A program made the translations under genes and the position numbers. Below the pieces are notes generated by a model, which was given only the letters and a program-made list of their open reading frames with translations, had not been told where the DNA came from and searched no databases. A stretch of 60,106 bases of DNA from positions 1-60,106 of the IMG/VR virus record IMGVR_UViG_3300029427_000002; one strand, written 5' to 3'. The stretch is from a virus. Below are positions 3,317 through 58,674 of this stretch, piece after piece. How positions within the stretch are numbered: position 1 is the first letter of the stretch; each line of letters opens with the position of its first letter.

Positions 3317-3732
3317 TGGCAAATGCAAACGATTGGGCGACAGACCTTGAAAATACAGTCACAGCACTTGTCAAGGCTAAAACCCTAACGCAACTAAAGA
3401 AAACATATCCAAAGATAGTTATAACTAATGAGGGGGAAAACAGCGGTCAAGCAACATTCCCGACAGTATACATTCATTTACTGCCAGCAGTAGAACAAGG
3501 ACAAACGCTTGATGGACAGACAATTAATGCATTGTTAGCGACGTTTCAAGTAGATGTTACCGCTAACACAAGCAAGTCTGACTGTCGCAAGGTTATGGCA
3601 GTAATTACAGATACGTTTAAGACAATGAGATTTCAAGGCACATCAATGCCAGAGTTCTCAATCAGTAACAAAGTACATAAGAGTACCGCTAGATTCAGAA
3701 GAATGATAGCGGCAAATGACAGATTATTGTAA
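3316..3732 (+). CDS. Putative tail completion/terminator-type protein (DUF3168-like)
   Basis: 138 aa, TAATG coupling with the upstream gene, immediately before the major tail gene. Confidence 0.4.
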   Translation: MANANDWATDLENTVTALVKAKTLTQLKKTYPKIVITNEGENSGQATFPTVYIHLLPAVEQGQTLDGQTINALLATFQVDVTANTSKSDCRKVMAVITDTFKTMRFQGTSMPEFSISNKVHKSTARFRRMIAANDRLL

Positions 3733-5303: not shown

Positions 5304-8300
5304 GTGGAATTAGATTCGTTAGAAGTCAAAATTACCGGTACTGCCACTAAAGCTATTAATTCTGTCGATAAACTGATAAATCAGCTTACAAGGCTGTCAA
5401 CATCACTTGCGACTGTGAATGGTTCATCACTAAGCGGTCTTGCGAGTGGTGTTAGTCAGTTAGGTTCTGCTATGCAGAATATGAACGCAGGAACAGCAGA
5501 TTTTACAAGACTTGCTAAGAACATCACAAAGATAGGTTCTGTTGATTCAGCTGCACTAACTAACACAGCTACATCACTTCAAGCTGTCACAAAGGCAGTT
5601 GCAAGCATATCAGCTATTCCGCAAAATGCAACACAGGTCACAGAATTTGCAAAGTCACTTGGTAAGCTAGGCAGTAAGAGTATAGAAAACGCCGTTGTAA
5701 ACATTCCAAAATTGGGCAATGCTTTAAATGGCTTAATGACAACGCTATCAAGAGCACCAACAGTAAGTCAAAATGTTATTCAAATGACTAACGCATTGGC
5801 TAATCTTGCTAGTCAAGGTAGCAAGGTGGGTACTTCTTCAAACTCACTTCAAAAGTCGCTGTATGGCGTTTCTACAAGCACTAGGACAGCAACTAAAAGC
5901 AGTTGGAACTTGGCAAGTGCAATAGGTAAGTTTTATGCCACTTATTTTATGGTAATTCGTGGCAGTAAGAAACTTATAGAAGCAATTAAGTCAACAACAG
6001 ATTACATTGAGGCGTTCAACTATCAAGCGGTTGCATTTGGCAAGATTGGCTCGGAATGGGATAAAGATTACGAAAAGTACGGCTATGATAACGCAACAGC
6101 ATATGCAGAAAGTTTTCAAAGTAGAGTAAATGATACTCTTGGAAAACTATCAGGCTTAAAAGTTAATGTTCAAGGTGGTTTGCTTGAAGAAAGTGGAGCA
6201 AAGAACTTAGGACTTAACATACAAGAGATAACACAGTATGCTTCACAGTTAGCTTCTGTTACTAACTCATTAGGACAGACAGGCGAAGCAACAACGGCAA
6301 TAACAAAGTCAATGACAATGCTTGCAGGCGATATAAGCTCACTTTTTAATGTGGACTATAAAACGGTTGCACAGAACTTACAGAGTGGCTTAATCGGTCA
6401 ATCAAGGGCATTGTATAAATATGGTATTGATATTACCAATGCTACACTAGCAACATATGCCTATAACTTAGGCATTTCAAAGTCTGTATCAGAAATGACA
6501 CAGATGGAAAAGCAGCAGTTAAGAGTGTTAGCAATATTAGACCAATCAAAAGTATCTTGGGGCGATTTAGCCAACACGATTAACAGCCCATCAAATATGT
6601 TACGCCAGTTCGGTAACAATATGAAAGAGGTAGGAATGGTAGCAGGACAGCTATTTATCCCAATTCTTTCAAAGGTTATGCCAATAGTAAACGGAGTAAC
6701 TATTGCAATCAAAAGATTATTAGTCAATCTTGCTTCTTTAATGGGCGTAAAGATTGATTTTGAGAGCTTCGGACAAAGCGGATATAAAGACACATCAGAC
6801 GGCTTAGAAGATATTTCAAGCGGCTATCAAGATGTGGCTGATTCAGCTAAGAAAGCTACATTATCCCTTATGGGATTTGATGAAATAAATAAATTGCAGG
6901 ACGATACAAGCTCAAGCAAAGGCTCAAGCGGTGGTGGCGGTAGCTCTATTGATTTGACAGATGATATCGCTAAGGCGGCGGCTGACTATGAAGCGGCATG
7001 GAATAAAGCATTTGCCAATATGGAAAATTCCGCTGTTGCTTGGGCTGATAAGATAGAGAAAGCACTCGAACCTGTTAGGAAGATATTCAAAGATTTTGCA
7101 ATCGGGGATTTCTATGCAGCAGGACAAGATACATCTAACCTTGTGGCAGGAATTTTTAATTGGTTTGCAAAGGCTATAGATGATGTTCCTTGGTATACAA
7201 TTGGACATAATATAGGAGAGTATTTAGCTGGACTTAATTGGGTTGAAATCTTTTCAAGCCTTGGCAATGTGTTATGGCAAGCCATTAAAGCAGTTATCGA
7301 ATTATGGAGTGGTTCATTTACGGCAGCACCAATTGAAACAACTTTAATAACGGCTATAGCGGCATTGAAATTTACAGGCTTAGGAAGTGTTTTGAAAAAG
7401 AAACTTGTTACAGTAATAGGAACAAGTATTAAAGGTGCTTTAAAATCATTCGGAACAGGCAGTATAATATCAGGAATAGGTGGATTACTTACAACAGATA
7501 TAGGCACTATTATAGGAGCAGGAACAGCAACAGAAATAGGCTTAACTATAGGTGCTGGAATAGTAGGTGGAATAGTAGCCGCTATTGCTGGATTTAATTT
7601 AGGCAATTGGCTCAATGAAAAATTAACAGGCGAGAAAATAGATATGTCAATGTTTGACCAAATAGCGTATCTTATAAAAGCACCATTTGAAGATTTACCT
7701 AGCTTTATTGACGGAGTGATAGAAACTATCACATTTGGGCATAAAGATGATATAGCAAATTGGTGGACTGCAAGTGTTGCGCCGTGGTTTACTAAGGAAA
7801 AATGGGGAGAACTGGGAGACAACATAAAAACATCTTTAAGCGAAAAATGGAACAGTTTTTCAGATTGGTGGGGCAATACAGCTATTGTTAGCTGGTGGAA
7901 TAATAATGTTGCACCGTGGTTTGAAAAAGAAACATGGGTTGACGCTGTTGACGGAATGAAATTAGGAATACAAGAAAAATGGGATTCAATCGTTGGTTGG
8001 TGGAACAGTCTGGCAATTGTTTCTTGGTGGAGCAATGATGTGAAACCGTGGTTTACTAAGGAAAAATGGGAAAGCTTAGCTGACGGAATTAAAAAAGGTA
8101 TTCAAGGGAAGTGGGATGATATTGTAGATTGGTGGGATAGCAAACCAGCACTTCAACGCATTTCTGTGGCTATCGAAGATTTTAAAGCTAAGATACAGAA
8201 CGCTTGGAACAGCTTTAAGCAGTGGTGGAATGATTTAGGACTTGAATTTCCACACATTGATACACCACACTTTAAGATTGACGGAGAATTTAGTCTTGCA

Positions 8301-8630
8301 CCGCCTAGAGTGCCAAAAGTCAGTATTGATTGGTATGCAAACGGCGGATTCCCAGGCAAAGGACAATTGTTTGTCGCAAACGAAGTTGGACCCGAAATGG
8401 TTGGTACTATGGACGGAAGAACAGCAGTAGCCAATCAGCAGGAAATCACAACAGGTATTGCCAACGCAGTTTATCCAGCGGTTTACAATGCAGTTGTAGC
8501 GGCTATGTCAGAAGCTAACAATAATGTAAATATAACATTACAAGGTGACGCAGATAAGCTGTTTACAATGGTGCAAGATAAAGCTAATAACTATACTAAT
8601 ATGACAGGGCAAGCAGCCTTTCCGTATTGA
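5304..8630 (+). CDS. Tape measure protein (1108 aa)
   Basis: Longest gene after G/GT; GTG start 7 nt after AAGGGGG; helical N-half, TM-like Gly-rich segment, Trp-rich repeats near the C-terminus. Confidence 0.9.
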   Translation: MELDSLEVKITGTATKAINSVDKLINQLTRLSTSLATVNGSSLSGLASGVSQLGSAMQNMNAGTADFTRLAKNITKIGSVDSAALTNTATSLQAVTKAVASISAIPQNATQVTEFAKSLGKLGSKSIENAVVNIPKLGNALNGLMTTLSRAPTVSQNVIQMTNALANLASQGSKVGTSSNSLQKSLYGVSTSTRTATKSSWNLASAIGKFYATYFMVIRGSKKLIEAIKSTTDYIEAFNYQAVAFGKIGSEWDKDYEKYGYDNATAYAESFQSRVNDTLGKLSGLKVNVQGGLLEESGAKNLGLNIQEITQYASQLASVTNSLGQTGEATTAITKSMTMLAGDISSLFNVDYKTVAQNLQSGLIGQSRALYKYGIDITNATLATYAYNLGISKSVSEMTQMEKQQLRVLAILDQSKVSWGDLANTINSPSNMLRQFGNNMKEVGMVAGQLFIPILSKVMPIVNGVTIAIKRLLVNLASLMGVKIDFESFGQSGYKDTSDGLEDISSGYQDVADSAKKATLSLMGFDEINKLQDDTSSSKGSSGGGGSSIDLTDDIAKAAADYEAAWNKAFANMENSAVAWADKIEKALEPVRKIFKDFAIGDFYAAGQDTSNLVAGIFNWFAKAIDDVPWYTIGHNIGEYLAGLNWVEIFSSLGNVLWQAIKAVIELWSGSFTAAPIETTLITAIAALKFTGLGSVLKKKLVTVIGTSIKGALKSFGTGSIISGIGGLLTTDIGTIIGAGTATEIGLTIGAGIVGGIVAAIAGFNLGNWLNEKLTGEKIDMSMFDQIAYLIKAPFEDLPSFIDGVIETITFGHKDDIANWWTASVAPWFTKEKWGELGDNIKTSLSEKWNSFSDWWGNTAIVSWWNNNVAPWFEKETWVDAVDGMKLGIQEKWDSIVGWWNSLAIVSWWSNDVKPWFTKEKWESLADGIKKGIQGKWDDIVDWWDSKPALQRISVAIEDFKAKIQNAWNSFKQWWNDLGLEFPHIDTPHFKIDGEFSLAPPRVPKVSIDWYANGGFPGKGQLFVANEVGPEMVGTMDGRTAVANQQEITTGIANAVYPAVYNAVVAAMSEANNNVNITLQGDADKLFTMVQDKANNYTNMTGQAAFPY

Positions 8631-8690
8631 TAAGATAAAAGTATTGTGTTATCCTTTTACTATATATAAAAAGCAAAGGGGTAACGCAAT

Positions 8691-9323
8691 ATGGGAGATA
8701 AGAAACAGAAAAAGAAAGATAGTAAACTTAGCATAGTGGCAGCGGTTATGGCACTTTTCACTTTTACAATTCCAGTAGCACTTATATTAGCTATTGTGGA
8801 TTTGATTAAAAGCAAAGGGAATAGATCACAAAGGCATTTAGGTTCTTATTTTGCAATTATATTTTCGATATTGATGTTAATAGTAGTAATTGACAGAAAT
8901 GGAAATAATAACAATGCAGACGGCATAAATGTCACTAAACAAGTTGCTACAACAGAACAGAACACAGATACAGTTACATATGATAATACAACGCTTAAAT
9001 ATCTTAAGCATGATGTAATTGCAGATAGCAATGACAGAGAAGTTCTTGTTGTTTATTTTGACTTTGCAAACAATTCAGAAGACAACACAGCCTTTACATA
9101 TAATTATAATGTTACATGTTTTCAGAACGGCAAAGAACTCGACTATCCGTTAGTTAGTTTTGACATTGACGAATACAATAATATTGCAAGAGAATTACAG
9201 ACAGGTACAAATATTACAGTTGCAAGGATATATATGCTAGAAGATAAAAGTAATGTTGATTTAGAAGTAACGCCACTGGGAGACAATAAAAAACTTATGA
9301 AATTAACATTAGAATTACAGTAG
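8691..9323 (+). CDS. Membrane protein with two TM helices and a DUF5067/DUF4352-like beta-sandwich ectodomain (moron)
   Basis: LSIVAAVMALFTFTIPVALILAIV and YFAIIFSILMLIVVI helices, then REVLVVYFDFANNSEDNTAF...CFQNGKEL pattern. Confidence 0.6.
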   Translation: MGDKKQKKKDSKLSIVAAVMALFTFTIPVALILAIVDLIKSKGNRSQRHLGSYFAIIFSILMLIVVIDRNGNNNNADGINVTKQVATTEQNTDTVTYDNTTLKYLKHDVIADSNDREVLVVYFDFANNSEDNTAFTYNYNVTCFQNGKELDYPLVSFDIDEYNNIARELQTGTNITVARIYMLEDKSNVDLEVTPLGDNKKLMKLTLELQ

Positions 9324-22621: not shown

Positions 22622-22888
22622 ATGACGAAATTAAGAGTTTGGCATAATTGCCAAGTAGGAGCGGTTAAAAACTTTTATGTCGAAGTTGAAAGCATTGAAC
22701 AGGCTTGGAAAATTCTTAATACATTATGGGATTATGACTTGTTTCAGTATGAAAATCAAATAAAGCCGGATTACTGCAATGCTTCCGGACTTGAGTATTT
22801 TAACGAGGAAGAGCAGGAATGGTGTGAGTGGTACGACGATGACGGATTGGATATAAAAGAACATTTTGAAGAAAGCGGGGAAAGCTGA
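22622..22888 (+). CDS. Hypothetical acidic protein (88 aa)
   Basis: GGAGGG SD 5 nt before ATG 22622. Confidence 0.6.
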   Translation: MTKLRVWHNCQVGAVKNFYVEVESIEQAWKILNTLWDYDLFQYENQIKPDYCNASGLEYFNEEEQEWCEWYDDDGLDIKEHFEESGES

Positions 22889-23757
22889 TGAGTGCAAAAG
22901 GGTATAAAGCATTTAACAAAGGAATGATATGCAGAGGTAAGCAGTACGAAGAGAACACTACTTATGAAGAAAACGGAAATAAAATATGTGAAGCAGGTGT
23001 AATGCATTTCTGTGAAAATCCATATGATGTGTTGGACTATTATCCACTTGTTGATGAAAATAGCGGCATTCCAGATTTTGCAGATGTTGAAGCCGTTGGA
23101 GACATTTATAAAAAAGGGAATAAAACAGCAACAAACAAGCTTCATATTGGTGCAAAACTCGGGCTTAAAGGGTTTGTTAAGGCTTGCGTAGATTTTACTA
23201 TTGAAAAGACAAAAGTCGAATCTATAAAAGATAATGGCACTGATAATAGCAACAAGCATTCCACACAGATAGGTTCAAGTGGAAATTATGCACAGATATG
23301 CTCAAGCGGAGATTCCGTAACGATAGGTTCGGGTGGATATTCCGCAACGATAGGTTCAAGTGGAAATTATGCACAGATATGCTCAAGCGGAGATTCCGTA
23401 ACGATAGGTTCGGGTGGATATTCCGCAACGATAGGTTCAAGTGGAAATTATGCACAGATATGCTCAAGCGGAGATTCCGTAACGATAGGTTCGGGTGGAA
23501 ATTATGCAAAGATAATGTCAGAGGGTAAAAATTCTGTTGTCATGGCAGCTGGTTATGAATCAAAAGCAAAAGCAAAAATTGGAAGTTGGATTACGTTAGC
23601 AGAATGGATTAGAACTGGTGAAATGGACAATGATGGTAATTATATATGGATTCCTAGATGTGTAAAAACAGAATATGTAGATGGAAAGCGTATCAAAGAG
23701 AATACATTTTATAAATTAGTTGATGGCGAATTTAAAGAAGTAGAAAGCGAGGAATAA
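22888..23757 (+). CDS. Beta-solenoid repeat protein (nonapeptide I-G/C-S-S/G-G-x-x-x-x repeats)
   Basis: 289 aa; the central region is built from an 81-bp tandem repeat. Confidence 0.65.
   Translation: MSAKGYKAFNKGMICRGKQYEENTTYEENGNKICEAGVMHFCENPYDVLDYYPLVDENSGIPDFADVEAVGDIYKKGNKTATNKLHIGAKLGLKGFVKACVDFTIEKTKVESIKDNGTDNSNKHSTQIGSSGNYAQICSSGDSVTIGSGGYSATIGSSGNYAQICSSGDSVTIGSGGYSATIGSSGNYAQICSSGDSVTIGSGGNYAKIMSEGKNSVVMAAGYESKAKAKIGSWITLAEWIRTGEMDNDGNYIWIPRCVKTEYVDGKRIKENTFYKLVDGEFKEVESEE
23269..23500 (+). repeat. 81-bp tandem repeat, two base-perfect copies plus a partial third copy that diverges near its end
   Basis: Units start at 23269, 23350 and 23431 (ataggttcaagtggaaattatgcacagatatgctcaagcgg...). 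Confidence 0.9.
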
Positions 23758-40912: not shown

Positions 40913-41130
40913 TTGTAACCAAGCACGATAAACAACTACTCTTGCCAATTCCACAGGGAACATAAATATATTACTATGTTTCTAATGGGATTGCAAGCAG
41001 ACAATATAGAGATTGTAACAAAAAATAAAATACAAATAAAATAACCAAAAGCACGATAAAAAATAGATAGCGATTATACAAAAGATGAAACAATCTCTGT
41101 ATTACAGCTTTATTCACAGGAGGAAATATT

Positions 41131-41274
41131 ATGACAGCACCAATGAGTTTCAAATCAATTATGATTCCAGAATGGCAATATGACAAAATGGTTAAATCAT
41201 ATGATGAAGCGGTGAATAAAATCCGTGAGCTTGAAGAGGAGTTAGCAAAGTATAAGAAATGCACTAGCTTATAG
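41131..41274 (+). CDS. Small protein (47 aa)
   Basis: AGGAGGAAATATT-ATG; preferred over the antisense track ORF 40974..41264. Confidence 0.45.
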   Translation: MTAPMSFKSIMIPEWQYDKMVKSYDEAVNKIRELEEELAKYKKCTSL

Positions 41275-41346
41275 AGTTATTCCTCTATGATGATTTAACA
41301 GCATTCTGGGCATAATAATAATCATCAACAGTTGGAGGAATAAACA

Positions 41347-42198
41347 ATGTTATTAGAAACTATAAGTAATACACAGGATATGAACTACAAGACACCCATT
41401 GAGGTTGAATTAGGAATTGATGATAAGGGAATGACAACAGCAAGAAAATTGTATCAGTTTTTAGAACTTGCGCCACAGAATTACTCAAGGTGGGTTAAGT
41501 CAAACATTATTGACAATGAATTTGCCGCAGAAAATGAAGATTATTTTTACTCTTCATCAATGAAGAATGAACAAGGGAGAGGCAATTTTGCTGATGATTA
41601 CAAACTAACAGCACATTTTGCTAAGAAGTTGTCTGTCAAGGGTAACGGAGAAAAAGCGGAACAGGCAAGAGAATATTTTGCAACAGTTGAGGAAAGAGTT
41701 AAGCAGAAAGTGATTGACCTTGAACAGCTTGACCCTCAAACAAAGCTGATGAACTTGCTTGTACAGCAAATATCAAGAAATGAGCTTGAACAGAAGCAAC
41801 TTGCAAAAGAAGTCAGAGAAGTAAAACAGACACAGAATGCTATTGCTGAAACATTCCAAAGAGTAGATGATGTTGAGAACTTCCAGAAATGGGTCAATTC
41901 TTGCATTACAAAGATTGCTGAAAGTCCTTACTTTAACAAAGGTGATACCAGAGATAAGAGATATTCGTATGCAAGAAAAGAAAGTTACGAAAGACTAATG
42001 CAGAAAAGAAATTGCAGGCTTGATGATAGAGTTCAGAGAGCTGTCGGCAGAGCTTTGGAAGAAAGACCAGACATTAAAAAGTCTGAACTTAAGAAAATCA
42101 ACAAGCTATATGTAATTGCCAACGATAAAGACCTTAAACCAGCTTATGAGTTGGTAATTAAGGAAATGATGATATGTTATTGTGTAAAGAGTGCATAA
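41347..42198 (+). CDS. AntA/AntB-type antirepressor
   Basis: MTTARKLYQFLELAPQNYSRWVKSNI...YKLTAHFAKKLSVKGNGEKAEQAREYF. Confidence 0.7.
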   Translation: MLLETISNTQDMNYKTPIEVELGIDDKGMTTARKLYQFLELAPQNYSRWVKSNIIDNEFAAENEDYFYSSSMKNEQGRGNFADDYKLTAHFAKKLSVKGNGEKAEQAREYFATVEERVKQKVIDLEQLDPQTKLMNLLVQQISRNELEQKQLAKEVREVKQTQNAIAETFQRVDDVENFQKWVNSCITKIAESPYFNKGDTRDKRYSYARKESYERLMQKRNCRLDDRVQRAVGRALEERPDIKKSELKKINKLYVIANDKDLKPAYELVIKEMMICYCVKSA

Positions 42199-42275
42199 CA
42201 ATTAAATACATTAAGCAAACGCCACTAGCCAATATCGGTTAGTGGTTTTTGTTTTATTCAGAAAGGAGCATACAG

Positions 42276-42596
42276 ATGATTTTTAGCATCAATGGCACAA
42301 TCTGGCAAGTGCAATATAAAAATTCAAATTCGGGCGAATTAAAGCGGTCAGACGGCACAATCAGCTTAGGTGTAACTGATAGAAATACACATACAATTTA
42401 TCTATCAAATGCCTTGCGTGGATTTATGCAACGCAAAGTGCTGATACACGAAGTATGCCATGCAATCTGTATGTCCTATGATGTGTATTTGCCGATTGAA
42501 CAGGAAGAGATATTGTGTGATTTTGTAGCAACTTATGGAGATGAAGTGTTTGATATTGTTGATATGGTGCTTGGAGCAGTTAGGAGAGTAGGATAA
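42276..42596 (+). CDS. Small zinc metallopeptidase (HExxH; ImmA-like)
   Basis: VLIHEVCHAI; GAAAGGAG SD before ATG 42276. Confidence 0.6.
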   Translation: MIFSINGTIWQVQYKNSNSGELKRSDGTISLGVTDRNTHTIYLSNALRGFMQRKVLIHEVCHAICMSYDVYLPIEQEEILCDFVATYGDEVFDIVDMVLGAVRRVG

Positions 42597-42742
42597 TGAG
42601 TATTGATGAGTTATTAAAGATAGTTCAAAAGACTAATCCGACTATGACTAAGGAATTATTGATATATGAACTAAGTCAATGCCGGTATGCAAGTAAAGCA
42701 TTGATTTATACAGAAAGTTGTTGTGTTGACAATAATATTTAA
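42596..42742 (+). CDS. Small protein (48 aa)
   Basis: TAATG coupling to the peptidase gene. Confidence 0.4.
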   Translation: MSIDELLKIVQKTNPTMTKELLIYELSQCRYASKALIYTESCCVDNNI

Positions 42743-42754
42743 AAATGCTATTAT
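42726..42754 (+). promoter_or_regulatory. Promoter TTGACA-17-(TGc)TATTAT
   Basis: Consensus -35 and an extended -10, 120 nt upstream of the cas5-like start. Confidence 0.5.
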
Positions 42755-42816
42755 TTAATAGATGTAAACAATTGATAATTAATATATCATTTTACCTTAA
42801 TAGAACCATAGTGGAA

Positions 42817-42862
42817 AGTTGCATTGATACATTTTTGTATAGGTGCAACTTATTTTATTTTA
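42817..42862 (+). terminator. Terminator-like hairpin plus U-tract inside the cas5-like leader
   Basis: AGTTGCA..ATACA-tttt-TGTAT..TGCAACT followed by TATTTTATTTTA. Confidence 0.5.
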
Positions 42863-42873
42863 GAGGTTTTATT

Positions 42874-43572
42874 ATGAGAGTTGTAAGATTAAAAATGTAT
42901 CAAGAAATGGCTAGATTCAATAATCCATCAGCGCCAAAAGGTGCAGATTGCTACCCTTTGCCACCATTTAGCACAGTTAATGGGTTTATTCATTCAATGT
43001 GCCAATGGAAAAGGTATCATAAATTAGATTTTTTTGTTACTGGTAAAGGAATTTATAATACTAAGGTGCAAAAAGAATGGCACGGTGGCTATAATTTCAA
43101 CAAAATTAGCGATGAAATGCTTAAGCGTTGGGATGTTATAACAGATTATGCAGACGGAAGCCATACCGGCTGGGTTAGTACAGTTAAATATCATCTAATG
43201 CTAGTTGATTTATATACAACTATATACATCAAAGCTGATGATAGTGACATAGATGATATATACCATGCGTTACTAAAACCACCGGTATATCCATCATTAG
43301 GTGAGTATGGTGATTTATGCAAGATTGAAGCAGTAGATATTGTAGAACTTAAGGAACTTGACAAACCTATATCAGCTCCATTAGATACGCAATCTTATAT
43401 TCCTGTTAATAAAGGTAATTTCGTAGGAACTATATATAGAATTAATAACAAATATGAAATTATCAAAGGGCTTAGGCGATTCCAAAAAGTTCCTTGTTAC
43501 TTAGTGGATAAAGAACAGGAAGTTGTTAGTAATCTTTTTGATGACGATAAACCGATTATTTTTGTAGATTAA
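42874..43572 (+). CDS. cas5: Cas5 homologue, type I-B-like (232 aa), solitary
   Basis: MRVVRLKMYQEMARFNNP....YPLPPFSTVNGFIHSMC and SLGEYGDLCKIEAVDIVEL...YIPV...GTIYRIN match Cas5t/Cas5h hallmarks. Confidence 0.75.
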   Translation: MRVVRLKMYQEMARFNNPSAPKGADCYPLPPFSTVNGFIHSMCQWKRYHKLDFFVTGKGIYNTKVQKEWHGGYNFNKISDEMLKRWDVITDYADGSHTGWVSTVKYHLMLVDLYTTIYIKADDSDIDDIYHALLKPPVYPSLGEYGDLCKIEAVDIVELKELDKPISAPLDTQSYIPVNKGNFVGTIYRINNKYEIIKGLRRFQKVPCYLVDKEQEVVSNLFDDDKPIIFVD

Positions 43573-43576
43573 TTTA

Positions 43577-43630
43577 AACCCCACGGAATATAATGCAACT
43601 TTTTTGCTACCTCCGTGGGGTTCTCTTTTA
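43577..43630 (+). terminator. Terminator-like hairpin (11-bp stem)
   Basis: AACCCCACGGA-24 nt-TCCGTGGGGTT followed by CTCTTTTA. Confidence 0.55.
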
Positions 43631-43699
43631 TATTCGTAATTTCGATTTTGACAATTTTCAAAATCCGGTTCAGATTTCGTTCAAATCCTACTTAAAAAA

Positions 43700-43727
43700 T
43701 TGAAAAAATTTCTCACAAAATTATAAT
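43700..43727 (+). promoter_or_regulatory. Orphan promoter TTGAAA-16-TATAAT with no ORF downstream
   Basis: Hexamers read directly; the next ~300 nt have no ORF longer than 10 codons. Confidence 0.45.
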
Positions 43728-44026
43728 GTGCCATTTCAAATACCCCCGTCACTTTCAATTTTGAAATCCAAAAATCGGTTACACAGAATTTCAATTTTTA
43801 CTCCCGATTTTGTTCAGATTTGCCCTTGAAAATTGATGAAAAACTTTAATGGATTAAAGTACATTATATAAACTTGACTGGCTGCGGTTCGTGCTTGTTT
43901 TGACTTTGTGACTTTGTGATTTGTTCTGTACGGCGGTTTTATTGCGCCGATGTAGAATTATAAACCTACGAAACAAAACAGCCTTAAAATGCTTTTAAAT
44001 TCAATGCAAGGCAATTTGTTTTTGAT

Positions 44027-44695
44027 TTATTTTTTGCTAAACGCATTATTTTTATTTGGCATCTCTTCGATAATATCGGAATATCTGTTATATATATCGT
44101 TTTCTGCTTCTTGCCTGGCTTTAATAGCACTATCTTTAGTCGCAAAATATCCCAAATGATGATTTACGCCATCGAAGTATATTCTAGCTTGCCATTTTTG
44201 TTTATCTCCACGCCAATAAACACCAGGGCAACCACTCGTATTTCTTGCGGTTTTCTTTCCTAAGTGCACAAGACTCTCTGCTTTAACATTGCTATTTGGT
44301 ATGCAGCCCTCTGTAAGACAGCCGCAAGAATATCTTTTCTTTAAATGGGAAATAGGCAAGGTTATTATATTCCCGCATTTACATTTACAAATATATTGTG
44401 TTTTGCCGTCTTTACCGATTTTTGTATCAATAACCTTAAGTAATCCGAATTTATCGCCAATTTTTACGCACCCTTTGCCGAGATGTTTTTCTTTTTGGTA
44501 TTTTTTTTGATAACAACCACAACTTTTTATTTTCTGCGATGTTATCGCGCTTGTTTGCGCATAAAAAATATTGCCGCATTCGCACAGACATTTCCAACGG
44601 AGAGCGTTTTTGCTTTTATATTCGATATGTACAGGTTCTAAAACTGTGAAATGTGGAAATTTTTGTTTTGTTAAATCGCATTTTATTTTTCGCAT
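44027..44695 (-). CDS. AP2-domain DNA-binding protein with two Cys4-type zinc ribbons
   Basis: GCPGVYWRGDKQKWQARIYFDGVNHHLGYFATKDSAIKARQEAE; CLCECGN...CGC twice. Confidence 0.7.
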   Translation of the reverse strand: MRKIKCDLTKQKFPHFTVLEPVHIEYKSKNALRWKCLCECGNIFYAQTSAITSQKIKSCGCYQKKYQKEKHLGKGCVKIGDKFGLLKVIDTKIGKDGKTQYICKCKCGNIITLPISHLKKRYSCGCLTEGCIPNSNVKAESLVHLGKKTARNTSGCPGVYWRGDKQKWQARIYFDGVNHHLGYFATKDSAIKARQEAENDIYNRYSDIIEEMPNKNNAFSKK

Positions 44696-44758
44696 TTTTT
44701 CTCCTTGTTGTGTACAAATAAGCAAAGCTTTTTGCCTTGCTTATGATTTAGTACATAT

Positions 44759-45013
44759 TCAAAGAAGCTGATTTTTGATTTCTTCATTGGTAAGCTTCTT
44801 CAGATTGTCGACATATACGCACGCTTCGCGATTGTCTTCTAACAGAATCCAGACAACATCTCGACCGTTTCTGCATGTATTTAAAGATATAGTGTCGTCA
44901 TCTATCCATCTCTGAATATCGTCATCGCTTAAATCGCAATTAAAAAGACTTAGTGCTTCGTCAATTGCTTCTCTCTCCTTACTTGTAACCTCTCTGTTTG
45001 CGTACCATTCCAT
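44759..45013 (-). CDS. Hypothetical acidic protein (84 aa)
   Basis: GGAGGTATAAGAGC-ATG. Confidence 0.6.
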   Translation of the reverse strand: MEWYANREVTSKEREAIDEALSLFNCDLSDDDIQRWIDDDTISLNTCRNGRDVVWILLEDNREACVYVDNLKKLTNEEIKNQLL

Positions 45014-45132
45014 GCTCTTATACCTCCATTTTTTAAAAATTAATAAATAAAGATATACTATTTTAATCTACCAAGTAGAAATTAATAATAATATATCATT
45101 TATTGCCATAAAAATCAATCATTTATGGCGAA

Positions 45133-45173
45133 AGCAAGCCGGGGAATCGAACCCCGGGAGTGTCAACCTTGCT
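45133..45173 (-). other. tRNA-like acceptor/T-arm minihelix, also placed as the terminator of the upstream gene
   Basis: Minus strand: AGCAAG-gttgacactc-CCGGGG-TTCGATT-CCCCGG-CTTGCT. Confidence 0.5.
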
Positions 45174-45174
45174 A

Positions 45175-45627
45175 TTAAATTGCTTCTTTTTCTTTGCTGA
45201 TTTCTGCCGCAATTATTCCCTGCTCAAGAAAATAACGCAGTGCGCTATCTCCGAAACGCTGTATATAATATTCTGCAAGCTCCGAAGTGCTAAAAGCGCC
45301 TAAGGCTGTGCCAATGTCGCAATAGATGCTTTTATATGTTCTTTGCCTGCTTGCAAGTGCCTTGTCAATCGGATTTTTTGCCTCTTCCTCTTTAACAGCT
45401 ACAAGTCTATCAGCTCGCATTGTTCTAATATGTTCGTTTCCGCTTTCGTCGGAAACAATAACACATTTAACGCTTTTTCCGCTCTTGGTAGGCTCTACGC
45501 TTTTAATTGTGGAAGTGTAACCAAAATTCCAAACTGTAACCATTCCCGGCTTTAATTTTGCCGCCGGAATTGCTTTTTGTGGTGTGTGTATTCCTTGTAA
45601 TTTAATTGTTCTCATAGTATCAACCAT
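45175..45627 (-). CDS. Hypothetical protein (~150 aa; start uncertain)
   Basis: The long ORF is clear; candidate starts are ATG 45627 or 45615, and the track start at 45717 is TTG. Confidence 0.55.
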   Translation of the reverse strand: MVDTMRTIKLQGIHTPQKAIPAAKLKPGMVTVWNFGYTSTIKSVEPTKSGKSVKCVIVSDESGNEHIRTMRADRLVAVKEEEAKNPIDKALASRQRTYKSIYCDIGTALGAFSTSELAEYYIQRFGDSALRYFLEQGIIAAEISKEKEAI

Positions 45628-45704
45628 CCTTTCATTGTGCGGTCTGCCATCATCAGAGCCGGGAGACCATTCCGCGGCTGACGCTCCAAACCGGAGCGTT
45701 TCGG

Positions 45705-45959
45705 CTAAAATCTGCAAGGCTTTTCATAGCGAATAATTGCGACTGTTTCGCCTGTGCTTTTAAGAGTTCCCCAGCCGTTCCACATCGGACCATTTAAACC
45801 TTTTAGTTTAGGCTGATTATAAAGTTCTTCTCTCTGGCTTTCCGCCATGCGCCCGTTGTTATAGCCATAAATAAGACTTTTAAACTCTGCTGCTGTCTTA
45901 ATTTCCGTCGGCAAATCGTAAACGCATTTATTACCATTTTCTAATAACCCTATTATCAT
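45705..45959 (-). CDS. Hypothetical protein (84 aa)
   Basis: ATGA-type overlap with the upstream gene. Confidence 0.55.
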   Translation of the reverse strand: MIIGLLENGNKCVYDLPTEIKTAAEFKSLIYGYNNGRMAESQREELYNQPKLKGLNGPMWNGWGTLKSTGETVAIIRYEKPCRF

Positions 45960-46123
45960 TCTGTTACCTCCTCAATGTATATTCTTTCCTCTGCTCCAGT
46001 CTCGTAATCTTCGTAAACTCCGCCTAAATCATCAAACCAGCTTTCAGCTCCTCGGCGACTGTATGTCTCGCCACCTAATAAAACTTTTCCGCTTTCTGTT
46101 ACAAGTCTGTATTGTTTATCCAT
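45956..46123 (-). CDS. Hypothetical acidic protein (55 aa)
   Basis: GTGAGGA 7 nt before ATG 46123. Confidence 0.5.
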   Translation of the reverse strand: MDKQYRLVTESGKVLLGGETYSRRGAESWFDDLGGVYEDYETGAEERIYIEEVTE

Positions 46124-46882: not shown

Positions 46883-47077
46883 ATGAAAACAATCGAATTA
46901 TTAAACAAGGTCGTCAAGCTTGGGTTTGACAGAGAAAAGGCACTTGCTGATATAGACGCAAGTCTTGATGAAATAATTGGAGCAAAGAACAGAAAGCCAA
47001 TCGCAGAAGAAGAAATAAGCGAAGAGCTGGCAAATGATATTTTGTTTGGCTTTGAATGTGAAAAAGAAAGTAATTAA
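46883..47077 (+). CDS. Hypothetical protein (64 aa)
   Basis: AAAGGTGAAAAAG-ATG. Confidence 0.5.
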   Translation: MKTIELLNKVVKLGFDREKALADIDASLDEIIGAKNRKPIAEEEISEELANDILFGFECEKESN

Positions 47078-48258: not shown

Positions 48259-48470
48259 TAAATAAGCGAATTCTAGCTGTTTGGCTCACGATAACAGCAT
48301 TTCGCTAAATTAGAGTTTGGCGAAGTGATAAAACAGAACATTTGAACGATAAAAGTACAACAAAGCCAGTAAACAAGCGGATTGTAGCCGTTTGCGTGAT
48401 AATTATTTATTGCGCAATGGCTCCGCTCTGGCTGATTTCATTGTGCAAGATGTACAAACGCAGGGCGTGG
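48222..48470 (+). repeat. Three degenerate ~105-bp direct repeats starting inside the terS 3' end
   Basis: cattgtgcaagatgtacaa at 48222 and 48439 (19/19). acaaagcYagtaaaYaagcgRatt.tagc.gtttg at 48249 and 48360. Confidence 0.6.
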
Positions 48471-49608: not shown

Positions 49609-49679
49609 TGCCTCATAGCCAAGCGGTAAGGCACCGGACTTTGATTCCGTTAGCGTGGGTTCGAATCCCACTGGGGTAG
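49609..49679 (+). tRNA. tRNA-Gln (anticodon TTG)
   Basis: Hand-folded cloverleaf: TGCCTCA/TGGGGTA acceptor (2 G-U), TAGCCAAGCGGTAAGGCA D-arm as in bacterial tRNA-Gln, CTTTGAT loop, GTGGG-TTCGAAT-CCCAC. Confidence 0.8.
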
Positions 49680-49894
49680 TTTGTCTTACTTTTATCGTAG
49701 ACTACCATGTTTTGCATTTTACAGGGTAGTCCTCCTTTCATGTACTTTCTTGGAGATTCAGTTAAGGGTGGTGCAAGACCACTCGGAAAGGCTTACCTCA
49801 TACAGAGGTGTGAAAATCAACTTATCAAGGTTCTTCTCAATATCCCCCAAAATATTATTGCATTTTCCCTTGATAGCCGTTACAGGCGGTATTT

Positions 49895-49966
49895 TGGATA
49901 GTAGTTCAGTTGGGAGTAACGCTTGATTTATTCAAGTAGTCACAGGTTCAAGTCCTGTCTATCCAA
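49895..49966 (+). tRNA. tRNA-like gene with anticodon TTA (ochre-suppressor type), non-canonical D-arm and U37
   Basis: TGGATAG/CTATCCA acceptor (7 WC pairs), GCTTG-ATTTATT-CAAGT anticodon arm, ACAGG-TTCAAGT-CCTGT T-arm. Confidence 0.5.
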
Positions 49967-50090
49967 TTACAACAAACTAGCTTGACGAAGCGAAAAGCAG
50001 AACTACGACTGCCTGTTTGTTGTTATTACTAATCGTAGAGTTGAGCGAATAAGGCGGTACGCTCTTATTATCTTTCGTAGGAGGTAATTT

Positions 50091-50555
50091 ATGACGGTAA
50101 AAGATTTATTTAATTCAAAAAACACACTGCAAGTAGATATTGGATTGGCAGAACAAATAGGATTACACAATTCAGTAGTCTATACAGAAATCAAAAAGGC
50201 TAAAAAAGAAAACAACATTGATTTATTTAATAAACAGGATTTAGCCTATGTTCAAAAGAGATATTTACCATTTTTCTCAATAAAAACAATACAAAGGTCT
50301 TTAAGCTTTCTTCTCGACAAAGGCTATATAACAGCAGATAAAATAAAGCCGGAAGAAGCAAAAGAAATTGTTTTAAAAAGTAAACATAATTGTAAGTTTA
50401 AATGCGGATGGTGTGGTTGCGGTTGCAATGTTATAAACGAACACCATTATCCAATACCAAAATCAATGGGTGGAACAAAAATTGTAAGGATATGTCCTAA
50501 TTGTCATTATGAATTTCATTCTTTATACAAAATCAGTAGAAAGGATGGTGTTTAA
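50091..50555 (+). CDS. Winged-helix plus HNH-type zinc-finger nuclease
   Basis: CGWCGCGCNVINEHHYPIPKSMGGTKIVRICPNCHYEFH. Confidence 0.65.
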   Translation: MTVKDLFNSKNTLQVDIGLAEQIGLHNSVVYTEIKKAKKENNIDLFNKQDLAYVQKRYLPFFSIKTIQRSLSFLLDKGYITADKIKPEEAKEIVLKSKHNCKFKCGWCGCGCNVINEHHYPIPKSMGGTKIVRICPNCHYEFHSLYKISRKDGV

Positions 50556-50556
50556 T

Positions 50557-51600
50557 ATGGCGGAAGTTAGAATTAAAAAGGCTGTAATCAGAGAAGATTT
50601 ATTATCAATAACAAACGATTATAGAAAAGCAATCATTCTCAATCAGTTTATCTATTGGTCTGAAAGAGTATCGGATGCAGATAAGTTTATTCAAAAAGAA
50701 AATGAGATTGCAAAGAGCAATGGCGAAGAGGAAAGAGAGCTTTTCTATGGTTGGATATATAAAACCGCCGAAGAATTAGCCGATGAGGTTATGCTAGGTT
50801 TATCTGCAAGCCAGATAAGAAGATATATCAGTGATTTGGTGAATATGGGTTATATCTCAAAGCGAAATAACCCTAAATATAAGTGGGATAGAACATTACA
50901 ATATAGGGTAAATCTTGTAAATATTGCAAAAGACCTTAAAAAGAATGGTTATCCATTAAGCGATTATAAAATTGAAATTCCAGAAAATGAAAAAACCATT
51001 GTGCACGAGTGCGTAATCAATAATGAGCCAATGGAAAATCAAACACAAGCTAGTGACGAAGCAATACCAGATAATACTAACATAGATTACTTAAACAGAG
51101 ATTATAATTCAGAAATTACTAATAAGGATAATACATCAATTAACATTGATGGAGAGGTACATACATCGTTTTCAGAGAAACCGACGGCAAGAGCGGTCAC
51201 AAGAGATGAAATGTTGCTTAAAGAAAAAGATATGGTTGATAGGTTCAACAACATCTGTGACAACGACATAGCTAATTTAGCTATATGTGATTGCGTTAAG
51301 GATGGATTTAAGATGTATATGCAGTTATATGAAATCTATTTCCATAAAGTACACCCAATACTTACAGATAAGACATTAAAGAATGTATGTTTTGTCCTAT
51401 CAACTATCACAGATACAGAACACGGACATTTCAATTCTGATGATATATACGAAACAGACGATAAGGGCATTACAGTTTTACAGAGAATGATTAACGACCA
51501 TTTCATCAGAGAACATAGAGAAAGCACCAACTACTCAATAACACATTTTGCCAATGCTGAATATCTTGGCAAGCTGGCAAATAGATTTATAGAAATGTAA
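50557..51600 (+). CDS. Winged-helix (HTH_36/replication-initiator-like) DNA-binding protein
   Basis: AIILNQFIYWSERV...LSASQIRRYISDLVNMGYISKRNNPKYKWDRTLQYRVN. Confidence 0.55.
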   Translation: MAEVRIKKAVIREDLLSITNDYRKAIILNQFIYWSERVSDADKFIQKENEIAKSNGEEERELFYGWIYKTAEELADEVMLGLSASQIRRYISDLVNMGYISKRNNPKYKWDRTLQYRVNLVNIAKDLKKNGYPLSDYKIEIPENEKTIVHECVINNEPMENQTQASDEAIPDNTNIDYLNRDYNSEITNKDNTSINIDGEVHTSFSEKPTARAVTRDEMLLKEKDMVDRFNNICDNDIANLAICDCVKDGFKMYMQLYEIYFHKVHPILTDKTLKNVCFVLSTITDTEHGHFNSDDIYETDDKGITVLQRMINDHFIREHRESTNYSITHFANAEYLGKLANRFIEM

Positions 51601-57237: not shown

Positions 57238-58674
57238 ATGAACACAATGTATTTTCAAGACCTTGTTAGAGGTTGTTATGGTAGAAAAATCGCATATACG
57301 AATGTAGGTACAATAACTGCTAACAATGTTGTTAAGGTTATTGGAAGTACTATAGGTATATTTAATTGGAATAAACCAGTTATAAAGTATCTGTGGCATT
57401 ACTACAAGGGCGACCAACCTGTTTTATACAGAACTAAGCTATCTAATGAAGACATAATTAATAAAATTGTCGAGAATCACGCTTATGAATGGGTTCAATT
57501 CAAGGTAGGACAAAGCTATGGCGAACCAATCCAGTTTATTAGCCGCAAAGACGATGAAACTATCAATAAAGCGGTTGATACGCTTAATGATTTCATGACA
57601 GATGCCAATAAGCAAGAAAAAGATATTAAAGCCGGAGAGTGGCAATCCGCAACAGGTACATCATTTAAAGCAGCACAGCCTAAAAATGGAGATGTGCCAT
57701 TCAGAATTGTGGCACCCACGCCTCTTAATACTTATGCTATTTATAATGAGAGCACTGAAGAACAGATACTTGTCGTGCAAGAGCTTAAAGACGAGGATGG
57801 AAACTGGTATAAAATGGCATTTTCCGACACTATGTCATTCAGAATTGTTGACAGCAAAGTAGTTGAAGCAAAACTACATACATATGGCGAAATCCCTATT
57901 GTAGAATTTCCGAATAATCATGAAAGACTTTCTGACATTGAACTTATTATAGGTATGCTTGACGCAACCAATAATATGCAGTCCAACAGAATGGATAGCA
58001 TACAGCAGTTTGTTGAGTATTGGGTTAAGTTTGTTAATTGTGAAGTGGACGAAGAGACTTTTAAAAAAATGAAAGAAAACCATGCATTGGTTGTTAAGTC
58101 AATGAATAAAGATAACAAGTCTGATGTCGATATTATGACGCAGGAACTTAATCAAACGCAAAGCCAAGTAGCCAAAGAGGATTTTGTAGACAATGCTTTA
58201 TCTATATTGGCTATTCCAAACAAACAAGGTAATACAGGTGGAGACACACAGGGAGCAGTTGAACTTAGAAATGGATGGGACTTCTCAAAATCAAGAGCAA
58301 AATTAAAAGACCCTCTTATCAAATCATGTGAAAAACGACTAGCCGTGGTGGTTCTTAACATATTGAGACTCGCCGGAGAAGATTTAAAACTATCGGTTAG
58401 AGATTTTGATGTACAGATAAATCATAGCCCACAGGACAATATGTATACCAAGGCACAGGCGCTCACAGTATTGCTTCAAAGCGGCATACATCCACTTATA
58501 GCAATTAAGACAGTTGGTTTATGGGGAGATGCAGAAAAGACATTCCTTTTATCAAAACCATATCTTGATAATATATACAAGACTATTGATGATGTGGAAG
58601 CACAAGAACAAAAAGCACAAGAGATAGTTAATCAACTTAATAATAATCAGCAAAATAAGGCAGTTATCGAATAA
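57238..58674 (+). CDS. Portal protein (SPP1 gp6-like)
   Basis: 478 aa, between terL and the scaffold gene; KGDQPVLYRTK...NHAYEWVQFKVGQSYGEPIQF pattern. Confidence 0.85.
   Translation: MNTMYFQDLVRGCYGRKIAYTNVGTITANNVVKVIGSTIGIFNWNKPVIKYLWHYYKGDQPVLYRTKLSNEDIINKIVENHAYEWVQFKVGQSYGEPIQFISRKDDETINKAVDTLNDFMTDANKQEKDIKAGEWQSATGTSFKAAQPKNGDVPFRIVAPTPLNTYAIYNESTEEQILVVQELKDEDGNWYKMAFSDTMSFRIVDSKVVEAKLHTYGEIPIVEFPNNHERLSDIELIIGMLDATNNMQSNRMDSIQQFVEYWVKFVNCEVDEETFKKMKENHALVVKSMNKDNKSDVDIMTQELNQTQSQVAKEDFVDNALSILAIPNKQGNTGGDTQGAVELRNGWDFSKSRAKLKDPLIKSCEKRLAVVVLNILRLAGEDLKLSVRDFDVQINHSPQDNMYTKAQALTVLLQSGIHPLIAIKTVGLWGDAEKTFLLSKPYLDNIYKTIDDVEAQEQKAQEIVNQLNNNQQNKAVIE

Follow-up and report, generated by a model that had tools for sequence, protein, structure and literature searches.

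A solitary type I-B Cas5 homologue and a CreR-like RNA unit in a Lachnospira phage: a candidate two-component anti-CRISPR operon

Why would a phage carry a single subunit of Cascade and no other cas gene? The question is raised by the IMG/VR virus record IMGVR_UViG_3300029427_000002, a stretch of 60,106 nt that was analyzed over its whole length (positions 1–60,106; referred to as the window, to which all unlabelled coordinates refer). A gene at 42874–43572 encodes a solitary homologue of Cas5 of the type I-B CRISPR systems. Gene and protein are designated vcas5 and vCas5, for viral Cas5, L-numbers denote fetched loci, and P-numbers denote Cas5 homologue proteins. The reading that we prefer, to which we assign a probability of about 0.6, is that the locus 42726–43629 is a two-component anti-CRISPR operon directed against the type I-B system of a Lachnospira host, one component being the viral Cas5 and the other an RNA of the type known as Cracr. 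The elements of the locus are the following:

42726–42754, plus strand: sigma-70-type promoter, with TTGACA at 42726–42731, a 17-nt spacer and a TG-extended TATTAT at 42749–42754
42762–42769, plus strand: 8-nt CRISPR RNA (crRNA) 5′ handle ATGTAAAC, identical to the 8 nt with which the host I-B repeat ends (ATGTAAAT/G)
42770–42793, plus strand: 24-nt pseudo-spacer AATTGATAATTAATATATCATTTT, present as one unit only
42794–42819, plus strand: partial I-B repeat (positions 1–26), positions 4–26 of which match the L. hominis repeat at 21/23
42816–42861, plus strand: hairpin and ATTTTATTTT, the stem (42816–42851) being AAGTTGCA..ATACA/TGTAT..TGCAACTT
42862–42866, plus strand: Shine-Dalgarno sequence AGAGG, 7 nt 5′ of the ATG at 42874
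42874–43572, plus strand: vcas5, solitary viral Cas5b homologue of 232 amino acids
43579–43629, plus strand: terminator-like hairpin and T-run 3′ of the vcas5 stop, CCCCACGG...CCGTGGGG, called partly by a terminator scan

The viral Cas5 homologue

The protein is a genuine type I-B Cas5 homologue whose resemblance to the family is far above chance, as the initial annotation, made from the sequence alone, had recognized from its motifs. The NCBIfam profile TIGR01895 (Cas5b) matched vCas5 with E = 5.6e-24, residues 1–218 aligning on profile positions 1–204 of 217, at a score of 84.9 bits that lies under NCBI's curated naming cut-off of 96.7. The PADLOC Cas5b profile matched with E = 1.5e-24, while the match to Pfam PF09704 (Cas5d) was weak (E = 0.039). 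The predicted structure also bore out the assignment to the repeat-associated mysterious protein (RAMP) fold of Cas5. An AlphaFold2 model based on 85 homologues reached a predicted local distance difference test score (pLDDT) of 94.4 and a predicted template modelling score (pTM) of 0.87, and its top Foldseek matches in the PDB were all Cas5 chains of type I Cascades. The best one was 8fcj_A, from a I-B CRISPR-associated transposon (E = 1.3e-7, template modelling score about 0.6), followed by chains from I-E, I-A, Synechocystis I-B and I-C. A PDB sequence search with the Cas5 profile produced nothing below E = 0.18; only the fold search succeeded.

The gene is solitary. A PADLOC scan of the 78 window open reading frames (ORFs) of at least 90 amino acids matched Cas5 as the sole Cas family, and when the Lachnospira hominis Cas6, Cas8b, Cas7, Cas5, Cas3, Cas1 and Cas2 proteins and AcrIB3–8 were compared with the window by tblastn, vcas5 alone was matched. 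These results upheld the earlier statement that the 60 kb hold no other cas gene.

The mechanical ORF, 42745–43572, would encode 275 amino acids, while translation from the ATG at 42874 yields the 232-amino-acid product. The latter was taken as the correct start because the Cas5b profile aligns from residue 1, the commonest homologue length is 232 amino acids, and a promoter occupies 42726–42754. This segment scores best as a sigma-70-like promoter within 42400–44100 (11/12 plus the TG extension), so the ORF start at 42745 does lie inside a promoter, as first annotated. The promoter geometry is likewise kept in L095, L180, L091 and L178, and a GGAGG or AGAGG Shine-Dalgarno sequence is kept in all vcas5 lineages compared. 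Since the −10 hexamer ends at 42754, transcription is predicted to start at 42760/42761. Together with the hairpin and T-run at 43579–43629, the promoter agrees with the proposal that the gene has transcription signals of its own.

A profile search for homologues collected 247 sequences, and a neighbor-joining tree with bootstrap was built. In this tree a clade of 22 sequences, composed of the window protein, part of P0001–P0029 and the orphans of L098 and L099, stood apart from operon-encoded Cas5b (bootstrap 99/100). All fetched contexts of the clade were phage or prophage without a cas operon:

L001: prophage inside a 407-kb contig
L004–L009: beside a lysis cassette
L091–L097, L178–L182 and L303–L306: phage or prophage, no cas operon
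L098: tape measure and endolysin upstream, host genes downstream

The closest operon-encoded protein, P0015, shares 35% identity with vCas5, and its gene follows cas8b and cas7; the nearest bona fide Cas5b proteins are only 34–38% identical to it. The gene is carried by at least 114 IMG/VR contigs, mostly of 55–60 kb. It was intact in all 81 copies compared (81/81), and the median ratio of nonsynonymous to synonymous substitution rates (dN/dS) was 0.13, values that indicate a functional gene under purifying selection. The window clade departs from a set of 65 bona fide Cas5b proteins at eighteen positions where conservation in that set is 80–100%, many of the lost residues being 92–100% conserved. 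The replacements include N14R, R16N, K17N, S20A, F21P, K24A/V, S54F, Q56T, H118Y, P121A, R144E, E146G, K192N and W203F; R144 and E146 are both 100% conserved in the 65 proteins. The core motifs PLPPxST.G..H..C and SLG..D are retained, and global charge or isoelectric point showed no clear shift between viral and bona fide Cas5.

A Cas5 homologue of this kind has already been characterized, and the remark in the initial annotation that no phage Cas5 decoy was known is out of date. AcrIB3, a Cas5 homologue found on Listeria mobile elements, inhibits type I-B systems; it co-immunoprecipitates with the Listeria I-B Cascade and acts upstream of target DNA binding, or blocks it (Katz et al., bioRxiv 10.1101/2023.06.24.545427). 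Like AcrIB3, vCas5 is a full-length Cas5b homologue that lies alone, outside any CRISPR-cas locus, on a mobile element of a Firmicute, and the host has type I-B. However, AcrIB3 is 28% identical to vCas5, it is placed in the tree beside Listeria Cas5 and other bona fide Cas5b, and it retains N14, R16, S20, F21, K24, E25, R144 and E146, all of which are replaced in vCas5. No crRNA-like RNA partner has been reported for AcrIB3. Identity and tree position rule out membership of vCas5 in the AcrIB3 clade and, since AcrIB3 falls outside the clade of the window protein, Cas5 seems to have been exapted at least twice, independently.

The vcas5 family itself has been catalogued before, although as an entry only. 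Katz et al. listed 358 orphan viral cas genes, and the entry IMGVR_UViG_3300007353_000004 of their Table S3 (cas5, CAS-I-B, 8549–9139, predicted host Lachnospira; 10.1101/2023.06.24.545427) is the contig of our locus L083, where a 90%-identical vcas5 orthologue lies at 8555–9250. Their pipeline discarded hits near predicted arrays, and a mini-array of one unit would be invisible to it.

The crRNA-like unit and the host system

Species-representative genomes were scanned and yielded 80 loci; most are I-B operons, the array lying downstream of cas5 by a few kb. The I-B array of Lachnospira hominis NSJ-43, with the repeat GATTTAATAGAAACATAGTGGAATGTAAAT, includes 4 spacers out of 20 that match the window. 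The protospacers and their adjacent motifs (PAM) are:

6684–6719, plus strand: NSJ-43 spacer 16, 36/36, PAM CCA
3463–3497: NSJ-43 I-B spacer, 34/35, PAM CCG
57379–57414: NSJ-43 I-B spacer, 34/36, PAM CCA
48361–48388: NSJ-43 I-B spacer, 27/28

None of the 492 spacers of 17 other arrays had a comparable match to the window. The four L. hominis spacers indicate that the phage meets type I-B immunity in Lachnospira, and they connect it with a host I-B system through spacer matches, the approach that the initial annotation had proposed.

The leader of vcas5 holds more than translation signals. Neither TRF (Tandem Repeats Finder) nor a k-mer array detector found a canonical CRISPR array in the window, but the earlier statement that the phage has no array needs correction: a one-unit crRNA-like mini-array was overlooked at 42762–42819. 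The 113-nt leader is composed of promoter, handle, pseudo-spacer, partial repeat, hairpin with U-tract, and Shine-Dalgarno sequence, and the handle begins 1–2 nt after the predicted transcription start. When up to 3 mismatches were allowed, the host repeat core had one match in the window, at 42797–42819, with 2 mismatches and 55 nt before the ATG, and 100 shuffles yielded 0 matches. Type I crRNAs have an 8-nt handle as a rule, which would put the Cas6 cut after 42815. The hairpin at 42816–42851 separates the RNA unit from the gene and resembles a terminator or an attenuator; a simple terminator scan did not call it. The leader RNA as a whole folds with −26.5 kcal/mol (z = −4.17). Rfam searches of the leader identified no CRISPR-DR family, whether run at gathering thresholds or with E values up to 10. 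There is no further promoter between the RNA unit and vcas5, which makes them a single transcription unit.

The organization of the unit resembles that of a regulator present in the hosts. In 14 host I-B loci a divergent CreR-like gene lies upstream of cas6 and consists of a handle, a 22–23-nt pseudo-spacer and a degenerate repeat (the terminator was checked in L103). CreR-type autorepressors have been described by Liu et al. 2023 (bioRxiv 10.1101/2023.03.10.532045) and Shmakov et al. (10.1101/2023.03.03.530964), and the name Cracr has been given to their copies in viruses (Liu et al., 10.1101/2024.10.29.618823). The native pseudo-spacers of the 14 loci match CCN-flanked sites located 60–100 bp off, upstream of cas6, at 13–15 of 15 informative positions. 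In L. hominis the site, CCT followed by ATTAGATAATTTTTATAT, overlaps the −35 of the cas6 promoter and is matched at 17/18, with the sole mismatch at position 12. Position 12 is flipped out in type I Cascade complexes. The pseudo-spacers of the host regulators found differ in all cases (14/14). Another repeat was observed in bona fide host I-B operons, where a single degenerate copy (25/30 in L. hominis) is found in the short interval that separates the stop of cas5 from the start of cas3:

L101, 10727–10756: degenerate repeat between cas5 and cas3
L145, about 10737: degenerate repeat between cas5 and cas3
L103 and L102, about 10700: degenerate repeat between cas5 and cas3

Cas6 might process the cas mRNA at this gap repeat, which could also be a source from which a phage captured cas5 and a repeat.

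The window pseudo-spacer is identical to the native CreR-like one of L. hominis at 19/23 positions, and the family allele of L057 is identical to it at 21/23, with 14/15 at the promoter site. Liu et al. recognize a Cracr by at least 9 PAM-proximal positions in common with the spacer of the host CreR or CreA; the window pseudo-spacer shares 9 of the first 11 with the native L. hominis unit, with mismatches at positions 2 and 4. In other members of the viral clade the agreement is complete. The pseudo-spacer of L306 is identical at 22/22 positions to the native one of a Lachnospiraceae metagenome-assembled genome (MAG), L138, which includes the PAM-proximal positions asked for by Liu et al. In L099, one pseudo-spacer of the prophage array agrees at 15/15 positions with a site that has a CCA PAM and lies 105–130 nt upstream of cas6 in the same MAG (L144), whose I-B operon has no native regulatory unit of its own.

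Comparison of the leaders of 81 family copies showed that the only columns with a majority below 60% are pseudo-spacer positions 4, 10 and 13 (42773, 42779 and 42782). The remaining columns (L010–L089 leaders) are at least 80% conserved, and mostly above 90%. There are two main pseudo-spacer alleles, with about 51 and 27 copies. The location of the polymorphic positions suggests retargeting to different host cas6-promoter variants, and the cas6-promoter target predicted for the alleles is CCN followed by AATTGATAATT or AATAGATAA(C/T)T. A metagenome scan with CCN plus AATTGNTAATTNNTATAT was uninformative, as the loci listed, at least 120, were swamped by chance matches and none had Cas6 or Cas8b. 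Two candidate targets were rejected: a promoter-like match in L205 from that scan proved to be unrelated sequence without a cas gene, and a 19/24 "target" in L101 is the host's own regulator, in the same sense.

The association of a Cas5 gene with a crRNA-like unit recurs in 10/12 examined lineages of the viral clade. The unit also precedes vcas5 in L095, L180, L178 and L091, whose proteins are 65, 60, 56 and 53% identical to that of the window, respectively. In the leaders of lineages with 53–100% identical proteins, ATGTAAA and AATAG..CAT..TGG.AA are invariant, and a hairpin and U-tract occur in each leader lineage, the stem differing in sequence. In L091 and L178 a full repeat stands as the first element. 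In distant members the unit is found just downstream of vcas5 with a promoter of its own:

L303: two 22-nt pseudo-spacers, downstream of vcas5
L306: one pseudo-spacer, downstream of vcas5
L182: unit downstream of vcas5
L098 and L099: up to five units with 16–18-nt pseudo-spacers, downstream of vcas5

Lineages lacking the RNA (L304 5270–5320, which is the P0020 prophage, and L004–L009) have an operon formed by a gene for 89–90 amino acids, a 139-amino-acid helix-turn-helix (HTH) gene that overlaps the vcas5 start, and vcas5. The L304 promoter includes the palindrome CCACGCATGTGCGTGG between −35 and −10, resembling the acr promoters controlled by Aca proteins. A scan of viral contigs for units made of handle, short spacer and repeat produced at least 8 credible units among the matches listed, which were mostly chance matches. 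Three IMG/VR units, at L404 5571, L414 5452 and L332 1443, have the pseudo-spacer ATTAATTTATTATCAAGACATTT, equal to that of the native regulator of Coprococcus ammoniilyticus (L112), and are candidates for stand-alone I-B Cracr.

The window unit shares with Cracr its location on a virus, and its architecture of repeat, short spacer and repeat; Cracr spacers copy that of a host regulatory mini-array upstream of cas6 (10.1101/2024.10.29.618823), which the window pseudo-spacer resembles. CreR itself, the native model that the unit would mimic, is part of the CRISPR-cas locus of the host and works for the host (10.1101/2023.03.10.532045). Phage mini-arrays of type I-B were noted in Clostridium and Fusobacterium phages by Shmakov et al. 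(10.1101/2023.03.03.530964), and viral units of this type are often encoded together with an Acr protein (10.1101/2024.10.29.618823; 10.1101/2023.03.03.530964). Unlike in those reports, the partner here is a homologue of Cas5, the subunit that binds the 5′ handle of the RNA, and neither of the two mini-array papers mentions Cas5; in addition, the first repeat of the window unit is cut down to the 8-nt handle at the predicted transcription start. Another related case is RacrIC1-AcrIC5, where an RNA and a protein anti-CRISPR are on one transcript with the repeat-like unit just 3′ of the promoter (Camara-Wilpert et al. 2023, PMC10651486). A Racr, however, is a repeat standing alone that works by sequestration and requires neither handle nor guide (PMC10651486), whereas the window unit has a handle and a regulator-like pseudo-spacer. 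The action of the window unit may include a sequestration component.

Explanations for the pairing of vCas5 and RNA

In the two-component anti-CRISPR operon that we favor, the one strong promoter would give rise to the crRNA-like RNA first and then, by read-through of the hairpin, to vcas5. The RNA would be loaded into the host Cascade in competition with immune crRNAs and, since its pseudo-spacer resembles that of the host CreR, it may direct Cascade to the cas6 promoter and tighten the repression of the cas operon. By analogy with AcrIB3, vCas5 would compete with the host Cas5 for Cascade, leading to complexes that are useless for interference. Between them, RNA and protein would reduce Cascade activity as well as its resupply. 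Homology, fold, solitary status, the anatomy of the RNA unit, its likeness to the host regulator, the host link, the recurrent pairing and the purifying selection are observed here; expression, processing, entry into Cascade, inhibition and promoter repression are inferred. The idea of a Cas-derived counter-defence factor, advanced in the initial annotation, gains from the context, namely the spacers, the phage-only clade under purifying selection and the regulator-mimic RNA; it had been formulated on the premise of no array and overlooked the RNA.

Several observations weigh against this reading. The window pseudo-spacer matches the NSJ-43 cas6 promoter site at 14/18, with mismatches at seed positions 2 and 4, and a cognate target of the window allele was not found in the window or in the 80 host I-B loci. 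Pairing is not obligatory, as the P0014 and P0020 lineages have vcas5 with an HTH gene upstream and no RNA unit, and no Cas5 gene is present in the 5–6 kb flanks of the L404 and L414 units (the L332 flank is <2 kb). On the protein side, the mechanism is borrowed from an independent exaptation, as vCas5 is outside the AcrIB3 clade. Moreover, if vCas5 blocks DNA binding as AcrIB3 does, a Cascade loaded with the Cracr would be disabled too, and the two parts look antagonistic unless the complexes are distinguished. The same paradox was encountered for AcrIF24 and Cracr, where it was resolved by shorter spacers (Liu et al., 10.1101/2024.10.29.618823). The regulatory pseudo-spacers considered here, native and viral, are also short, 16–24 nt versus 34–39 nt for the spacers of host arrays.

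The paradox would disappear if vCas5 were the dedicated partner of the co-transcribed RNA, binding its handle and nucleating a hybrid Cascade from the host Cas7, Cas8b and Cas6, an explanation that is possible but that we consider doubtful. The viral guide would then have priority over host crRNAs, and the complex would only repress the cas promoter or another target and carry out no interference. The initial annotation's alternative, that of a Cas5 turned to the binding of a phage RNA, gains plausibility in this form, with a handle-bearing RNA immediately upstream, as an inference from sequence. Such a partnership would fit a pairing kept in 10/12 lineages of a clade that diverges down to 34–40% identity, with the unit upstream or downstream and despite rearrangements, and it would fit the strong purifying selection. 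The location of the handle 7–8 nt 3′ of the −10 in the window, L095 and L180 would give a 5′ end made without Cas6, which also favors it. On the other hand, the handle is canonical and no private code between handle and protein is evident. Basic residues that are 94–100% conserved in Cas5b are lost (R16N, K17N, R144E and K192N), a pattern that would point to a loss rather than a gain of nucleic-acid contacts. AcrIB3, the sole tested analogue, inhibits without an RNA partner, and the RNA-less P0014 and P0020 lineages and the viral units without a Cas5 gene speak against a dedicated partnership as well. One could picture the hybrid complex, somewhat speculatively, as a programmable repressor of host cas promoters that is blind for immunity, the three polymorphic pseudo-spacer positions tracking host promoter variants in an arms race.

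That the RNA unit is a plain decoy of the Racr type that sequesters Cas proteins, or a mini-array against competing phages, with vCas5 as an unrelated neighbor in an anti-defence island, appears improbable. Viruses often have solitary repeat units 3′ of promoters and close to acr genes (PMC10651486), virus-targeting viral mini-arrays are known (10.1101/2023.03.03.530964), and the searches made did not find the target of the window allele. However, the resemblance of the pseudo-spacer to that of the host CreR (19–21/23), the exact matches of relatives to regulators or cas6 promoters, the location of RNA unit and vcas5 in one transcription unit with no promoter between them, and the survival of the pairing through rearrangements across a deep clade all argue against it. 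Even less credit can be given to the idea that vcas5 is a decaying or functionless fragment captured from a host cas operon, or that the contig is a chimera of phage and host. The native loci with a degenerate repeat right after cas5 do make the capture of cas5 and repeat a plausible origin, but the explanation was rejected in view of the 81 intact copies on phage contigs of about 55–60 kb and the dN/dS of 0.13. The 34–38% identity of the nearest bona fide Cas5b, the lack of any other cas gene and the coherence of the temperate phage genome are further points against it.

A solitary viral Cas5 and a CreR-mimicking, Cracr-type RNA are each of a known kind; no publication that describes a Cas5 homologue in one operon with such an RNA was found in the searchable literature. 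Cas-derived anti-CRISPR proteins and viral mimics of cas-regulator RNAs were both described only recently, and separately, and this locus joins them, the protein being the Cascade subunit that reads the 5′ handle of the RNA. If the pairing is functional, it would provide a natural system to study how a phage combines a Cascade blocker with a Cascade-dependent guide and how the assembly of Cascade is nucleated and hijacked, as well as a test bed for the diversification of cas promoters and CreR under pressure from viral mimics. If vCas5 were the partner of the RNA, the phage would supply the guide and the nucleating subunit and take over the remaining host effector. Phages of this family abound in the human gut, as the IMG/VR contigs indicate, and infect Lachnospira, so the locus bears on the dynamics of phages and hosts in the microbiome. 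For annotation, the locus illustrates that array finders miss one-unit mini-arrays beside orphan cas genes.

Neighboring genes and other features of the phage genome

With its genes for portal, capsid, holin, GH25 lysin, integrase, RecT and SSB, the window reads as the coherent genome of a temperate, siphovirus-like phage; megablast of 41000–46000 against INPHARED phages gave no match. The neighbors of vcas5 encode an anti-repressor, an IrrE-like peptidase and an HNH protein. The att-proximal location attributed to the gene in the initial annotation could not be confirmed. The ORF at 50509–51597, next to an int-alpA RNA, encodes a replication initiator, and an integrase domain is present among the window ORFs but unplaced. 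In the lineage with 53% identity (L091/L093), genes for ArdA anti-restriction and Lar-like restriction-alleviation proteins are located near vcas5, downstream, which places vcas5 inside an anti-defence island there.

Another gene of the window has relatives next to orphan cas5 genes. The 64-amino-acid protein encoded at 46883–47074 (plus strand) has no Pfam or PHROG match, but it is 67% identical (E = 3e-27) to the product of the gene that directly precedes vcas5 in L303, a locus for which the Cas5 identity is only 40%, and a similar gene precedes the orphan cas5 in L099. The protein is a candidate for a third member or a regulator of the anti-CRISPR set.

Other features observed in the window were:

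23258–23514, plus strand: an 81-bp unit in three copies (sub-period of 27 bp, 97% matches) within ORF 22888–23757, which probably encodes a repetitive tail-fibre-like protein
45638–45706, minus strand: type II hammerhead ribozyme (Rfam RF02276, 61.5 bits, E = 2.5e-10), straddling the junction of the minus-strand ORFs 45175–45717 and 45705–45959, about 2 kb downstream of vcas5
49609–49679, plus strand: tRNA-Gln(UUG)
49894–49967, plus strand: suppressor-type tRNA with anticodon UUA, which reads the UAA stop
49970–50035, plus strand: int-alpA RNA (RF02996, 50.2 bits), directly after the UUA tRNA, the next ORF being the replication initiator at 50509–51597

Recoding of stop codons is not evident in the window, as long ORFs look intact in code 11.

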